Source of the DNA: an uncultured Eubacteriales bacterium
GTDB lineage: Bacteria > Bacillota > Clostridia > TANB77 > CAG-508
Assembly (NCBI GenBank): GCA_902492015.1
Contig: CABUJR010000005.1
Span: 9,049-73,048 of the forward strand
DNA: 64,000 nt
Direction: 5' to 3'
The notes beneath the pieces were generated by a model. It saw nothing but the letters and a program-made list of their open reading frames with translations. It was not told the DNA's origin and ran no database searches. Positions 19,201 to 27,800 of the stretch are shown piece by piece. Within the stretch, counting starts at the first letter, position 1; each line of letters begins with the position of its first letter. Position numbers and translations under genes: made by a program.

Positions 19201-21335
19201 TCGTTTCTCAATTTTGTTATTATTTCTGCTGTTTCTGCTGAACCATCATATCTAAAATATCTATTTTGTAAAAACATTTTCTTTATTTCTGAATTTGTTA
19301 CTGTTCTTTGACCCTCTCCTGTTTGTACTATATTTCCAGTAGTGGTTAAGTTTACATATATTTTTTCTTTTATTGCCTTATCTTCATCATCTGCTTCTAT
19401 TTCTTCATCAGGATATAATCTTTCATATCCTGTTGATGATTCATCTTCATTTTCTTCATAAGCTGACCAAACTGTATCTGTATTTGCATCCCATCCTAAA
19501 TCTGTTAACTTTTCATTATCTGTAGATTTAATAGTAATAGCTTTTTTACCTAATTTTATTCCTTCTGCATCTGCCTCTTCCTGTGTTCCTTCGTATGGCT
19601 GAGATGCTAAATTTCCATTTTCATCAACTGGATATAATTTATATTCTCCTGCTTTATCTGGCGCTTCCTCATAACTATATGTTTCATATAAAGTCCAGCG
19701 TTCTTTCATCATTGCTTCATATTCATAATCATAATCTACAAATTCTAATTTGTTTTGATTAGGATCATTTCTATTTAATACGAAATATACATCTCTATAC
19801 CAATGATCTGTAACATTTGCTATATACGGTAAATAGGTTTCAAAATCACTGTCATAGTCATTTGTAAGATATGATTTTATCTTACTCAATTTATTTCTAC
19901 AATTTGTACATGTTTCAGTTATTGTGTTTACTTCTTGAACTTCTCCTGTATATGGTTCTCCCGCTTTATCTATTTCAGTATTTTCTTTATCGGCATAAAT
20001 ATAATTATCTTCATCTTTTTCTAAAACATATTCTCCAGAAGAATCAAAATATACAGTTTCAAATCTGCATGAACATCCATTGCTTCCAGGACCAATATCT
20101 ATACCTAAATTTTGAGCAGCAGTTATTTCTGAAGATGATATAATTAAATCATCAAACCAATTTATTAGAGAAGAAAACCAATTATTTCCTTCAAAAACTG
20201 CTGTTTCTTCTTGTAATTTTGTTACATCTACATAGCCTAAATCTGTTTTATATGCAGTCATTGCAGTTCCTTCTATTTCATGTAAATAAATATTTATAAC
20301 TGTATTAAATGATGTTGCCATATCATAAGCTAAATCTGGCATTTGAGTTGCTTTATGTACTGATAGCAGGAACTCTAAAGGCATACCATATCTTCCTGTC
20401 CAACCATCTAAACTAAATTCCATTGCATTATTATTCTTAAATACGCTCTTTTTAGTAATTAAAAGTTTTTTACTGTCTGTATCTATTTCTATTGAATCCC
20501 AATTCCATATAGTACTTGTATTTACTGGTTTTCCTTCAATTCCAACTCCATTATCATAATAAAACATTAAAAGTCCAGATCCCCACTCTTCCATGGCTGC
20601 CTTTGTTATTCCCAAAGTATCTAAAATTGGTGCATATATTGCATTGTAAAGTTTATATATTGCTGTAACTGTTCCCTGCAAAAATTGTTCTAGCCAGTTT
20701 CCCTCTGGATCTCTCGTAGCTAAATTTTTATTTTTTATTGTATATACATAATTATCTGAAACAATATATGCAAATATAAAATCGCTTTCTGCTCCAATTA
20801 TGTTGTCATCATCATTCCTTATAACCCCAACTTCTTCATCGACGTGAACTCCATTAGATTTATCAACTTCGCCATTTAATTGATCTTCAGAAGTTAAATA
20901 ATCTGTTAAAAATCCTTCTCCTTTTAGTTCATATCCCATTTGTTCCAAATAATCTAAAGTTGCATATATCTCATCACTTTCTACCTGTTTTGTTGTATCT
21001 GCTCCGAAAAAAGCTGCAATAAAATTACCAGCTTCTTTAAAAATAGCTTTTAATTGTTCCATAACCATACCTGGCATAGTTACAAAAAACATTATTAGAC
21101 CTATTGCTATTATTAATATTACTAAACCAGCAAAAATACCACCAAGTATTGGAGCTATGGCAGCTAACATTGAGTGTTTTGCTGCTCCACCTTTTTTCAA
21201 AAAGTTTTGTACAGCTTTACTTGTTTTTTCTTTTAATGAACTCTGTTTTTGTTGCTCTGTATTATTTGATGTTGTTGTATCTTCTCCCCCTGCATTATTT
21301 TCTTGTAAGTCTTTTTCTTCATCACTCATACGCAT
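16296..21335 (-). CDS. Giant (1679-aa) membrane-anchored multidomain protein with an NlpC/P60-like cysteine-peptidase core (putative cell-wall hydrolase or surface protein)
   Basis: N-terminal TM (LAAIAPILGGIFAGLVILIIAIGLIMFFV). Central segment: …STVCCATYVSWVLQEVGL…AADAHVEILGENKEG…YYNAGH…, which matches the Cys…His…His arrangement and the C-x-x-x-V-x-W-V signature of NlpC/P60 peptidases. Acidic low-complexity linkers. The C-terminal roughly 250 aa (…GVGATHYFGLTHYNLDLAKKLGYNISNWG…) form a separate conserved-looking domain of unknown type. Confidence 0.75.
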   Translation of the reverse strand: MRMSDEEKDLQENNAGGEDTTTSNNTEQQKQSSLKEKTSKAVQNFLKKGGAAKHSMLAAIAPILGGIFAGLVILIIAIGLIMFFVTMPGMVMEQLKAIFKEAGNFIAAFFGADTTKQVESDEIYATLDYLEQMGYELKGEGFLTDYLTSEDQLNGEVDKSNGVHVDEEVGVIRNDDDNIIGAESDFIFAYIVSDNYVYTIKNKNLATRDPEGNWLEQFLQGTVTAIYKLYNAIYAPILDTLGITKAAMEEWGSGLLMFYYDNGVGIEGKPVNTSTIWNWDSIEIDTDSKKLLITKKSVFKNNNAMEFSLDGWTGRYGMPLEFLLSVHKATQMPDLAYDMATSFNTVINIYLHEIEGTAMTAYKTDLGYVDVTKLQEETAVFEGNNWFSSLINWFDDLIISSSEITAAQNLGIDIGPGSNGCSCRFETVYFDSSGEYVLEKDEDNYIYADKENTEIDKAGEPYTGEVQEVNTITETCTNCRNKLSKIKSYLTNDYDSDFETYLPYIANVTDHWYRDVYFVLNRNDPNQNKLEFVDYDYEYEAMMKERWTLYETYSYEEAPDKAGEYKLYPVDENGNLASQPYEGTQEEADAEGIKLGKKAITIKSTDNEKLTDLGWDANTDTVWSAYEENEDESSTGYERLYPDEEIEADDEDKAIKEKIYVNLTTTGNIVQTGEGQRTVTNSEIKKMFLQNRYFRYDGSAETAEIITKLRNDNKIAYGPLTEEDLKKKTSITKDDKTETYTVKDYSANVTLNQDSLNAFSMLENTHTLDADYIYRDFKELIVELGYFTKEELTDETPRLLQFLVPDIGSGGYPNRVIDKREQEYGTMIHSKGDIKANVKNTLVELMKQVTESQAEANGDLSIVSGTGNTTTVSGMQSNFDIRENVLKGTVGGLEGEKKPSQVSVEELLTKAREMMEEMQAKTYAYCILGGEKNPGFSHTCELKTTYEESKSQAQSTVCCATYVSWVLQEVGLISSAQHSNSAQGIVNLLKDVDGIEVITEWSDLQPGDLLFFSDTDSQAAQNFAADAHVEILGENKEGTTFTYYNAGHYISADRPGIQEKSDWGDSHPYHFAVRLPLTGTSTSEESYEGYEGNEVVVSPVTGILLEYDTYKDKDIDTVSGEEYRTNVDIKYGPASAIPGAEGESEEETPANGEPQAESETEGGEIVTDKVGYAKILVLDAENYQKLESLTENRWKDDSLVRISEAKTSTNNEAALETDKSSARYLEKLETEEQMDEEHENWNNLDKTVYGYKEFAENYEKYGIAGQIIYIDGFVCELPDENLSGGTDGESGEEGETAGGEIAEQLPEGEKLTLESFKKVTAANLTGTEEPEEDAVLESKYEKDDEYKLASKKATNKLNAESAVKDEANSSIYLESEDLIFIKEGTVLGRTMTDREVVEKVRKDSPHPYEYYRPDASTSSSTSEGTGTGEETEAENEDKLIGNYIRIIMRDLDDTVVENVEDYMKLDEGGDVMEELDDEKFLYWMGIYGEGGNLEQQGGKYISVPVDLSDGVGATHYFGLTHYNLDLAKKLGYNISNWGDNQDLEMLTDVYLALIEEQKAQIRQELGEDIEDGYLQAFISILHNYGRLTKRGDEYKSTGKVSESTWTTYEDPSDQYAEALTKRRIGEWILITEGKYMNFYDGNTQEIDFTEGGKYSEETPFTDWCKDHGITNIEVKKPDE

Positions 21336-21416
21336 TTTACCTCATTTTAAAAAAATTATAGTATCCTATTTATATAATACCATAAAAGTGGTATTTTTTC
21401 AATATTTTCAGCTATT

Positions 21417-21676
21417 TTATACCATTTATATACTATCATTATCTTCTTACAATTTCAACAAAATTAGAATTTTGTAATAAAAAAGAAAAATAAATCAAAA
21501 AATGTAATTATATGAAAAATAAACACTCAAATTTACTTTTCTCTTATTATACCATTTATATACTATCATTATCTTCTTACAATTTCAACAAAATTAGAAT
21601 TTTGTAATAAAAAAGAAAAATAAATCAAAAAATGTAATTATATGAAAAATAAACACTCAAATTTACTTTTCTCTTA
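21417..21676. repeat. Perfect tandem direct duplication, 2 x 130 bp, in the 5' region of the giant gene
   Basis: Positions 21417-21546 and 21547-21676 are identical, base for base (ttataccatttatatactatcattatcttcttacaatttcaacaaaattagaattttgtaataaaaaagaaaaataaatcaaaaaatgtaattatatgaaaaataaacactcaaatttacttttctc). Confidence 0.95.
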
Positions 21677-21715
21677 TACTTCATATATTTCATATTTCAC
21701 CTATAATACTTAATA

Positions 21716-21757
21716 TAAAAAAATAAATGTAGATATCATTTGTATCCACATTTATTT
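21716..21757 (-). terminator. Rho-independent terminator of the transketolase operon
   Basis: On the minus strand: an 11-bp stem (taaatgtagat / atccacattta, one mismatch), loop atcatttgt, followed by a U7 run (plus-strand A-run 21716-21723). Confidence 0.55.
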
Positions 21758-21833
21758 AATAATTTCTTTTTATTTCAATATACATCATAATTTTGAATTT
21801 TATTCAAAAACTCTACTTTCTATATATTATATT

Positions 21834-22781
21834 TTAATCTCTTTTTACCTCTTCAATAATTTCTTTACTTGTTAATCCAAAATATTTTAGTAAAGCCATT
21901 GCATTTCCAGATTTTCCAAAGCAATCTTTCATTCCCATTCTTACTAATTTAGATGGATATTTATCAGTTAATACTTCTGATATTGCTGTTCCAAGTCCTC
22001 CTATTATACTATGTTCTTCTATTGATATAAGTTTTTCTGTTTCTTTTGCTGATTTTATTATTATTTCTTCATCTATTGGTTTTATTGTATGAATATCTAT
22101 TACTCTTATGTCTATCCCTTCTTTTTCTAATTCTTCTTTTGCTTTCAAAGCTTCTGCTACCATTATTCCTGTTGCAAATATTGTTGCTTTTTTTCCTTCA
22201 CCAAATTGAACTGCTTTTCCAAGTTCAAATTTTGTATTTTCATCATATATTACAGGTGTTGCTGCTCTACCAAATCTTATATATACAGGTCCTTTAATTT
22301 TTGCAGCTTCTTCTACTGCCCATTTACTCTGAGTATCATCACTTGGTGAAATTACAGTCATATTTGGTAGTCCTCTCATTAAATTTATATCTTCTAACAT
22401 CTGATGTGTTGCCCCATCTTCTCCAACTGTAATACCAGCATGTGTTGCACATATCTTTACATTTAAATTTGGATAACATATACTATTTCTAATTTGGTCA
22501 TATACTCTTCCTGTTGCAAACACCGCAAATGTACTTGCAAATGGAATTTTATTACAAGTTGCAAATCCTGCTGCTGTTGCCATCATATCTTGCTCTGCAA
22601 TTCCCATATCAAAAAATCTTTCTGGAAATTCTTTTGCAAATATATTAGTTTTTGTAGCTCCTGCTAAATCTGCATCTAATACCACTACATCTTTATTTTC
22701 TTTTCCTAATTCTAATAAAGCTTCTCCGTAACTTTGTCTTGTGGCCTTTTTATTTTCAAAATCCATAATATTTTCCTCCAC
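21834..22781 (-). CDS. Transketolase, C-terminal (pyrimidine-binding / C-terminal domain) subunit
   Basis: 315 aa (…GIAEQDMMATAAGFATCNKIPFASTFAVFATGRVYDQIRN…), the two-subunit transketolase form common in Clostridia. Confidence 0.9.
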   Translation of the reverse strand: MEENIMDFENKKATRQSYGEALLELGKENKDVVVLDADLAGATKTNIFAKEFPERFFDMGIAEQDMMATAAGFATCNKIPFASTFAVFATGRVYDQIRNSICYPNLNVKICATHAGITVGEDGATHQMLEDINLMRGLPNMTVISPSDDTQSKWAVEEAAKIKGPVYIRFGRAATPVIYDENTKFELGKAVQFGEGKKATIFATGIMVAEALKAKEELEKEGIDIRVIDIHTIKPIDEEIIIKSAKETEKLISIEEHSIIGGLGTAISEVLTDKYPSKLVRMGMKDCFGKSGNAMALLKYFGLTSKEIIEEVKRD

Positions 22782-24898: not shown

Positions 24899-27800
24899 CT
24901 AAATCTTTACTTTTATCTCTTTATCTAAATACAAAGAATATATATATACTTCTGTTACTTTTTTGTCCAAAGCTTCTTCTAAAGCTTCTTTATATATTTT
25001 TAATTGATTTAAATATTTATTTACTAAGCTTAATTCATTTCCGTCTTTAACAAAATCTGTCTTATAATCAATCAGAATTATTTCTCCATTTATTCCTACT
25101 CCATATAAATCTATTATTCCCTGTACTAAAATCGTTTGATCATCGGCTTCTTCAAAAATTTCTTTTGCTAAAACTTTTTTACAAAATGCCTTTTCTTTTT
25201 CTATGCTTTTACAATTTCTTATTTTTTCAAAAATATTTGATTTTGTAAAATTCAAAACTTTACTAAGATTTATATATTCTGCCTCTTCACAAGTTAAAAT
25301 ATTTTTTTCTATAAGTTCTTGTTTTAGATTTTCAAGTTTTTCAAAATTATAATCTTCCTTGAAATTAATTTTTTGCATGAATAGATGCATTAAAGTTCCT
25401 TTTTTGCTTGCTGATATTATCTCTTCTTCCTGAATAAAACTTGGAGTTAAAGTCTCTATTCCTATTTCTTTATGATTTATATTTTCAAAATCTATTTCAT
25501 TTTCAGTAAATTTTTCTTGTTTTATTTCTTTTATTTTACTAACCGTACTTTTTATAGGAAGCATTGTAGAAAGTTTTTCTTTGTATTGCCAATCAAAAAT
25601 CTTCTTTATTTTTTCTGTATCTATTTTTTTATCAAAATCAAATTTTCTAAGTTCTTCTTCTTTTTCTTCAGATTTTAAAAATAACACTTCATTTTTTGAA
25701 TATTTTTTTACTTCTATTAATCCTTCTAAATTACCTGATAAAATTACAAGCTCTATCCAATCTAAATATGAAATATATTTTTTTAATAATATTGGATTTA
25801 TCTTTCCATTTTCTGAAGTATATACATTTAGTAACTCTTGTTTTTTATCTAAATCCTTTTGATATTCTTTTACCGTTCCTGTAATTATTAGTTTTTCTTT
25901 TGCTCTAGTAAGTGCAACATATAAAATTCTCATTTCTTCTGAAATGGTTTCTTCTTTTATAATTATTTTAATAGCATCTTTAGCTGATGTAGAATATTCT
26001 ATCATCTTCTCATAATCTATATATTGTGGTCCTATTCCCATTTTTTGATGTAATAAAATATTAGAATTCAAATCTTGTAAATTAATTTTTTTCGAAGTTC
26101 CTGCTAAAATTACAATAGGAAATTCTAATCCCTTACTTTTATGAATACTCATTATTCTTACTACATTTTCATTTTCTCCAATTACTTTTGCAGCAGACAT
26201 ATCACTATTTCCACTTCTTAGTCTTTCTACAAATTTTATAAAATTAAATAAACCTTTAAAACTTGTTTTTTCATATTCTTTTGCTCTTTCAAATAACATT
26301 TTTAAATTTGCCTGTCTTAAACTTCCATTTGGCATTAGACCAACATAGTTATAAAAATTAGTATCTGTATAAATTTTCCAAATTAATTCTGCTAAACTTA
26401 AATAATCTGTTTGTTCTCTCCAATTCTCGATTTTTTCTATAAAATCATCTAATTTTTTCTTTAACATTCCTTCTAAAGTATTTCTTGCAGTTTTTATACT
26501 TTCATAAAAACTTGTATCTTTATCGCAAAGTCTGATTTTTAATATCTCATTATCTGTGAATCCACCTATTTCTGAACGTAAAACAGATACTAAAGAAATA
26601 TCATCTATTGGATTATCTAAAACTTTTAATACATTAATTATTGTTTGAATTTCTATAGTATCTAAATATTCATTTGATGCTTCTGAATATACTGGTATTC
26701 CTCTTTTTAAAAGTTCTTTCTCATATATTGGAGCTACTTTTGATGTTGCTCTTAATAAAATTACAATATCTTTAAAAGTTGCTTGTCTATAACCTAATTT
26801 TTTATCTTTAACCTTTGCTTTTGAAGATATGATTTCTTCTATTTTATTTGCTACAAGCCTTGCCTCGACTTCTTCTTTTTCTATATATTTATTTTCTTTT
26901 AAAACTTCATCTTGTTCTTCTTCATCATAATCTTCTTTTAATTCTATGATATTTAACTCTGCTTTTCCTAAAATATCTTCTCCTGTTTCTTCAAAATCTG
27001 CACCTAAATTTAAAAATTCTGTTTCATTATACTCAATATCACCTAAATTTTTGCTCATTATGTTTTTAAATACATTATTAGTTATATCTAATACATTTTT
27101 CCTGCTTCTAAAGTTTTTAAATAATTGAATTTTTAAACCTTTTTCATTTCCATCTAATGAATATTTTTCATATTTATCTAAAAATAATTCTGGACAAGCT
27201 TGCCTGAATTTATAAATGCTTTGCTTAACATCACCAACCATGAATAAATTATTGCCTTTTGAAACAGTTTTTAAAATATATTCTTGTACTTCATTACTAT
27301 CTTGATACTCATCTATTGCAATTTCTTCAAATTTTTCCTGATACTTTTTGGCTACTTCTGTTGGTATATAATTTCCATTTTCATCTTTTTTTACTAATAT
27401 TTTTAAAGCATAATGCTCTATATCATTAAAATCTATAATATTTCTTTCTCTTTTTTTCAATTTAAATTTCTCATCAAACTCTAATATTACATCTTTTAAT
27501 ATTTTTAAAATCTCATACATCTGATATATATCTTTATAAGCATTTTCAGAATCATATACTAAAATTTCTTTTACAATTTTCATTAATTTAGCTTTTACAG
27601 TATCTCTTGATTTTTTGGCTTCATCTTTTGCATCTAAAATAATTTTTCTGTCTACTGGCCAAGATTTAAATTTCATTTCATTTGCAAAATTATAAGCTTC
27701 ATCCCAAGATTTTTTGCTTTTTTCGTATAAAGTTTCTAAAATTTCTATATCTGAAACTATAGTTAAATAATATTTTTCTAATTCTGTATATTTTTCTATT

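Follow-up and report, generated by a model that had tools for sequence, protein, structure and literature searches.

A 1679-aa giant gene in this DNA is preceded by two adjoining, identical blocks of non-coding sequence, which raises the question of whether they are a real variant of the organism and, if so, whether they alter expression of the gene. The window analysed is a stretch of 64,000 nucleotides with a G+C content of 27%. Two 130-bp units, 21417-21546 and 21547-21676, were 100% identical by direct reading, by TRF and by repeat search. TRF reported the repeat at 21417-21677 with a period of 130, 2.0 copies, 100% matches, no indels and a score of 522; base 21677 is one further match beyond the two units. 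At a match probability of about 30% per base, 130 matches in a row are expected by chance with a probability of about 1e-68, and the two units are therefore a duplication. A previous sequence-only reading had described a perfect 130-bp tandem duplication at this position, and both the duplication and its distance from the giant gene were confirmed: a 498-nt spacer separates tktC from the giant gene, and the repeat occupies the part of it that lies 82-341 nt ahead of the giant-gene ATG (21335), whose open reading frame is on the minus strand. Within the 64-kb window no other copy of the unit was found, and TRF gave no second long tandem repeat. An alternative TRF solution of 2.4 copies at 88% places a 'third copy' at 21677-21724; this is a weak AT-rich resemblance and was left uncounted. 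The two copies are as follows.

21417 to 21546, minus strand: proximal 130-bp copy, still joined to the downstream promoter P1 as in the native arrangement.
21547 to 21676, minus strand: distal 130-bp copy, extra relative to the ancestral state and absent from three assemblies of the same species (L001/L011, L003/L012 and L005) and from the sister species L043 and L044.

Nearly all genes in the window, and all genes near the repeat, are on the minus strand. Their order is an addA-like helicase-nuclease, a 218-aa protein, tktN, tktC, the 498-nt spacer, the 1679-aa giant gene, a 195-aa membrane protein, ftsE, ftsX, two PcsB-like M23 peptidases and a tail-specific protease. This order is kept in at least seven related metagenome-assembled species (uncultured Clostridium or Clostridia, and one 'Candidatus Scatovivens'), and a BLAST search of the spacer against phage and plasmid collections returned no match, which together indicate a chromosomal locus rather than a phage or plasmid. 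Read in the sense of the gene, the spacer consists of a terminator-like hairpin with a T-run, 36 nt of flank, the two units, 81 nt that hold a promoter and a GAGG ribosome-binding site, and the ATG at 21335. The neighbouring features are listed here.

21834 to 22766, minus strand: tktC, transketolase C-terminal subunit, the upstream neighbour.
21713 to 21757, minus strand: terminator-like hairpin and T-run after tktC, with arms 21721-21735 and 21743-21757 and a fold z-score of -2.85.
16296 to 21335, minus strand: giant gene, 1679 aa, with an N-terminal membrane helix read from the translation; cell-wall-hydrolase-like family.
15700 to 16287, minus strand: gene of the 195-aa membrane protein, starting 8 nt past the giant-gene stop.

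The site in L043 homologous to the hairpin after tktC also scored as terminator-like. The pairing of the giant gene with the 195-aa gene is kept in L030, L031, L043 and L044, and the 195-aa gene is probably co-transcribed with the giant gene. Two contigs departed from the window near this region. One contig of ERZ825871 (L002/L037) matches the window to 8 nt past the tktC stop (its position 3942, equivalent to 21826 in the window) and continues into higher-G+C DNA with a gene on the opposite strand that has an Apyc1-like metallo-beta-lactamase fold; the contig reflects either a chimeric join or DNA inserted between tktC and the repeat. In L019, 20 mismatches fall within about 100 nt at the contig end (4550-4652, equivalent to 15252-15348) at the start of ftsE, the rest being identical; the probable cause is a misjoin at the contig end or a junction with a divergent strain.

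The giant protein gave no Pfam family at E values up to 0.001. Its weak matches were to CHAP in Pfam (E 0.19) and to RutG in NCBIfam (E 0.079), and sequence and profile searches of the PDB returned a weak T4-lysozyme-like match alone. Homologues number at least 280, are 1500-2000 aa long, come from uncultured gut Clostridia and are almost all unannotated. They carry, at about aa 900-1130, a papain-like peptidase domain (C39-like, NlpC/P60 or CHAP) and, at the C-terminus, a muramidase of the phage tail lysozyme (phage-lysozyme) or SleB type, while the approximately 850 aa that follow the N-terminal membrane helix of the family showed no match to known families. The start of the gene (MRM...) is conserved in relatives, and ftsEX and pcsB-like genes always adjoin it. 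The window species has one giant gene; sister species have two tandem giant paralogues (L043 8006-9115, L044 8106-9217, L023 12246-16893). In L023, a perfect 20-bp tandem repeat of 2.3 copies (12124-12169, GAAAAAACTACTAGAGCCTA) abuts the -35 of the second giant paralogue, and is thus a second, independent tandem repeat just upstream of a giant-family promoter. In L027 (5917-10276) and L029 (5767-8785), the giant open reading frame is broken after 233 and 278 codons and resumes in a different frame, owing either to sequencing error or to decay into a pseudogene.

Predicted promoter elements lie both outside and inside the repeated unit, and a further one is formed where the two copies meet.

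21374 to 21402, minus strand: P1, predicted main promoter of the giant gene, TTGAAA-17-TGgTATTAT, outside the repeat and 15 nt downstream of its end.
21430 to 21458, minus strand: proximal and ancestral P2, promoter-like, TTGAAA-17-TGaTAGTAT.
21560 to 21588, minus strand: distal copy of P2, promoter-like, TTGAAA-17-TGaTAGTAT.
21546 to 21554, minus strand: copy-to-copy junction, TGGTATAAT, a consensus extended -10; the end of a lone unit (21424-21416) reads TGGTATAAA.

The repeat had been assigned to the promoter or 5' region of the giant gene. The first part of that assignment stands, since the repeat is in the promoter region; it lies upstream of the core promoter P1, not in the 5'UTR. The P1 block (TTGAAA, 17 nt, TG-n-TATTAT) is shared by relatives whose giant protein is only 42-50% identical (L021, L026, L027), and P1 together with about 190 nt upstream of it is unchanged by the duplication. 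The spacers of P1 and P2 are 17 nt in every copy. Promoter prediction within the unit gave P2 as a candidate, with hexamers, TG and 17-nt spacing conserved in the sister species while six substitutions fall in the P2 spacer. A promoter scan, however, found 11 promoter-like sites against 7.5 ± 2.6 in shuffles, which is not an enrichment, and the calls of P2 and of the junction promoter are therefore made from conservation and consensus only. On the gene-sense strand TGNTATAAT occurs at three sites in the 64-kb window, a small number, all of them intergenic and upstream of open reading frames.

Conservation was uneven across the region. Identity to the sister species is 96-97% between P1 and the ATG but 86% in the unit, and tktC third codon positions stand at 80-83%, so most of the unit appears weakly constrained and close to neutral. 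Its last 27 nt are nonetheless invariant in this comparison. In both L043 and L044 each giant paralogue is preceded by its own nearly identical P2-P1 region, and the region before the second paralogue begins at about unit position 57. The unit can therefore be divided into about 56 nt of loose spacer and an upstream half of the promoter region that includes the whole of P2.

Neighbours of the window in public assemblies were found by exact-sequence look-up of tktC, tktN, the 195-aa protein and the giant protein. The contigs belong to a highly clonal species, most of them matching the window at 99.9-100% identity over stretches of up to 16.4 kb. The site was spanned with a single unit in JGI 3300029744 (L001/L011), ERZ28616105 (L003/L012) and ERZ27954799 (L005), the flanks of these contigs being 100% identical to the window over 13.5-16.4 kb. 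Between the window and L011, copy number was the sole difference over 16 kb. The flank from 21416 to 21336 was identical in all sister-strain contigs. A SPAdes contig of ERZ825871 (L013/L033) begins with the last 55 nt of a unit, then has two full units and then the flank; the unit-to-unit junction is thus present twice in an independent assembly. Eight Logan contigs (k=31, six runs) ended 29-30 nt (k-1) inside the unit, four on the tktC side and four on the gene side, and none of the Logan contigs found spanned the repeat site. Stops at k-1 from both sides are explained by a de Bruijn segment with two predecessors and two successors, as in a tandem repeat, whereas a mixture of zero-copy and one-copy strains would break at the unit edge. 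The Logan breaks are an indirect repeat signature, in which a fixed two-copy allele and a mixture look alike. An exact 51-mer from the unit gave 0 matches in a metagenome contig collection, and the window species is absent from the GTDB representative genomes, where the best relative is 61% identical. The suggestion that copy number varies at this locus was borne out by the comparison of sister strains: one-copy alleles (three assemblies) and multi-copy alleles (the window and the two-junction ERZ825871 contig) occur on identical flanks in otherwise identical strains, and the six Logan runs show contig breaks of the repeat type.

The age of the duplication was assessed from its ancestry. In L043 and L044, the two closest species (giant protein 75-76% identical), the spacer is 382-383 nt long, holds one unit and aligns end to end with the one-copy allele; in more distant relatives the spacer is 2-215 nt. 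As the sister species are single-copy, one copy is ancestral and the duplication is derived. The repeat junction has 1 nt of microhomology with the flanks, which argues for an illegitimate (non-homologous) founding event and not for slippage between pre-existing repeats. On the window-like SNP background both one copy (the JGI assembly) and two copies (the window) were found. A second background is marked by 10 SNPs in addA and was found in three of the Logan runs with contig breaks inside the unit; no one-copy allele was seen on it. In a four-gamete test one of the four possible combinations was therefore missing, so that a single origin without reversal suffices and recurrent gain and loss are not required. 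Judged from the contigs compared, the duplicated allele segregates in the species: at least two SNP backgrounds and about eight samples carry it, and it is neither private nor newly arisen. The ten addA SNPs are linked within 1 kb (24965-25928) and define a second haplotype seen in several samples, the surrounding 15 kb being otherwise invariant; this pattern suggests that a single tract was brought into a highly clonal species by recombination. Perfect identity of the units had been read as the mark of a very recent duplication. The duplication is derived, but identity says nothing of age here, since strains differ by less than 0.1% and 130 bp would be identical anyway, and the duplicated state on two SNP backgrounds and in many samples marks a segregating allele and not one that has only just appeared.

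We propose that this real, segregating duplication, which repeats the upstream half of a region with two predicted promoters, is a promoter tandem-repeat copy-number variant and would add promoter dosage; from sequence, we give this reading about an even chance. Each unit would hold a complete second promoter, P2, so that the duplicated allele would read P2-P2-P1 instead of P2-P1. The junction would in addition upgrade the near-consensus extended -10 of the lone unit to the consensus form. Transcripts begun at the extra P2 or at the junction would cross the proximal unit and continue into the giant gene and then the 195-aa gene, and the expected result would be more initiation and a modest upward change in expression. 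Because P1 and its upstream sequence are unchanged, any effect would come from the extra P2 and the junction -10. Two 130-bp copies would also allow unequal recombination or slippage, with changes in copy number far more frequent than point mutation, in line with the finding that copy number alone distinguishes the window from L011 over 16 kb. We consider a modest rise in transcription slightly more probable than no effect. Tandem co-directional promoters can interfere with one another, making the sign of the effect uncertain, and P1 may dominate, leaving the extra copy inert.

The last of these possibilities leads to the alternative that survives best. The duplication may be a neutral structural polymorphism upstream of a working promoter, with no meaningful effect on expression, kept by drift or hitch-hiking in a very clonal species. 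We regard this as nearly as likely as added promoter dosage, at somewhat under an even chance. Several observations are in keeping with neutrality: P1 and the approximately 190 nt above it are untouched, the identity of the unit to the sister species is near the third-codon-position baseline, more distant relatives have short and variable spacers, the SNP backgrounds fit one origin without reversal, and promoter-like matches do not exceed those in shuffles. Against it stand the full conservation of the last 27 nt of the unit and of the P2 hexamers, and the retention of the P2-P1 region with the sister-species paralogue. The junction, moreover, makes a consensus extended -10 of a type otherwise found on the sense strand here only in intergenic DNA. 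That an unstable duplication is found in about eight samples and two backgrounds would also be a little less surprising if it were not deleterious.

A stronger form of the dosage proposal would make the unit a hypervariable module, its copies (1, 2 and 3 or more) often gained and lost in populations and acting as a reversible rheostat for the giant, family-specific hydrolase by FtsEX-PcsB, the duplicate kept common in this gut commensal by selection as a long-unit contingency locus. We consider this unlikely.

An origin of the repeat in the assembly of the window, by concatenation of overlapping contig ends or by traversal of a graph loop once too often, is very improbable. Collapse or expansion during assembly had been raised as an explanation, and the perfect identity, the count of exactly two copies, the probable source in a metagenome-derived genome and the single copy in three other assemblies would be compatible with it. 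The same junction, however, occurs twice in the independent SPAdes contig from another sample (L013), and the k-1 breaks in six Logan runs require junction k-mers or a second unit context in the reads. A repeat length of 130/131 does not correspond to the standard assembler k values of 55, 77, 99, 127 and 141, and no other such repeat lies within the 64 kb. The artefact reading is thus already largely refuted. As far as these contigs can tell, one-copy and two-or-more-copy alleles both exist in nature, and the duplication in the window, two copies as assembled and perhaps more in the strain, is no artefact.

We attach equally little probability to a dispersed repeat or small mobile element, in which a unit at a second genome site would explain the Logan breaks without a tandem junction in those runs. 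A k-1 break does show two contexts for the unit and not which ones. No other copy of the unit was present in the 64-kb window or in any fetched locus, however, and phage and plasmid collections gave no match. Terminal inverted repeats and a target-site duplication were not seen by eye at the unit ends, and the tandem junction is directly visible in the window and in L013. The only second copy in the sister species is the paralogue promoter, and the window is without the second paralogue.

The least credible reading is that the duplication matters through the dosage of a cis-regulatory RNA leader or small peptide encoded by the unit: a 22-codon open reading frame (21693-21625) preceded by AGGTGA does run into the unit, and the unit RNA can form a 16-bp AU-rich hairpin, but an Rfam search of 20800-22400 at E values up to 10 gave noise alone, the fold z-score of the leader was -1.8, both sister-species substitutions in the hairpin break pairs (one of them its only G-C pair), the reading frame loses its ribosome-binding site in L043 and is broken there by a 1-nt deletion, and in the one-copy state P1 and P2 both lie downstream of most of the unit, which would stay untranscribed.

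Other candidate elements within the unit were also set aside. A terminator or attenuator hairpin inside the unit was not conserved in the sister species. For curved DNA or an UP-element, the unit ranked at the 52nd percentile among segments of the window in A/T-tract power at a 10-11.3-bp period. An operator was considered for the perfect 18-bp palindrome ACAAAATTCTAATTTTGT that each unit contains; it showed no clear enrichment in the window, with 8 matches at up to 2 mismatches against 3.7 expected (5 of 100 shuffles reached 8), and it is imperfect in the sister species. The Fur-box-like sequence GATAATGATA, which matches at 13 of 19 positions and was compared by eye only, was dropped.

If the extra promoter copy of the dosage proposal changes expression, the strains would form a natural allele series of one, two and perhaps three copies in an otherwise identical background. 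The locus would then be an example of tuning of a 1679-aa, membrane-anchored protein of an uncharacterised family with hydrolase domains, beside ftsEX and pcsB-like genes, and existing pairs of metagenomes and metatranscriptomes would offer a handle on an unstudied gene of an uncultured organism. If the duplication is neutral, it would be a useful strain marker. The locus breaks short-read assemblies, and copy number here is therefore not to be trusted from assemblies alone.

Three known kinds of repeat variation bear comparison with this locus. Simple-sequence contingency loci in promoters, such as the TAAA repeat of Neisseria nadA, the poly-G tract of porA and the TA repeat of Haemophilus hifA/B, have 1-7-nt units and very high slippage rates, and they shift -35/-10 spacing or the number of regulator sites (PMC3899988). 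The likeness lies in promoter-region copy number as heritable, reversible variation able to tune a surface or envelope protein (PMC3899988). Unlike at those loci, the unit here is 130 bp, core-promoter spacing is unchanged, and the first duplication needed an illegitimate event. Classification as a simple-sequence contingency locus, with a 1-9-nt unit altering promoter spacing or frame, was rejected, as the unit is 130 nt and the P1 and P2 spacers are 17 nt throughout.

Unstable bacterial tandem duplications, in the Roth/Andersson model, form rarely at sites of little or no homology and are frequently lost or expanded by recombination. The expected formation and loss of the repeat agree with this model, and it shares with these duplications the little or no homology at its formation and a novel junction that may create expression signals. 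They differ in being kilobase-sized and gene-spanning and in acting by gene dosage or a captured promoter, whereas the repeat here is wholly non-coding and its junction is a single-base improvement of a predicted -10. The patAB duplication of S. pneumoniae is an example of such unstable duplications and amplifications, in which a promoter may be captured or created at the junction (PMC4432121).

The nearest parallel described is the copy-number variation of promoter tandem repeats in M. tuberculosis. Those upstream of dop, lpdA-glpD2 and cysG-efpA have 54-58-bp units whose copy number varies between and within strains (PMC12817950). The present locus differs in its 130-bp unit, in having its main promoter P1 outside the repeat, in showing one versus two or more copies only, with variation known from strain comparison alone, and in its host, an uncultured low-G+C gut Clostridia. 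The two systems have in common head-to-tail units of tens of base pairs or more, here two perfect copies, that lie just upstream of a gene and carry promoter sequence, in the present case the predicted P2 (PMC12817950). In both, copy number differs between very closely related strains and short-read assemblies obscure the repeat, and in both the proposed effect is a graded promoter strength (PMC12817950).
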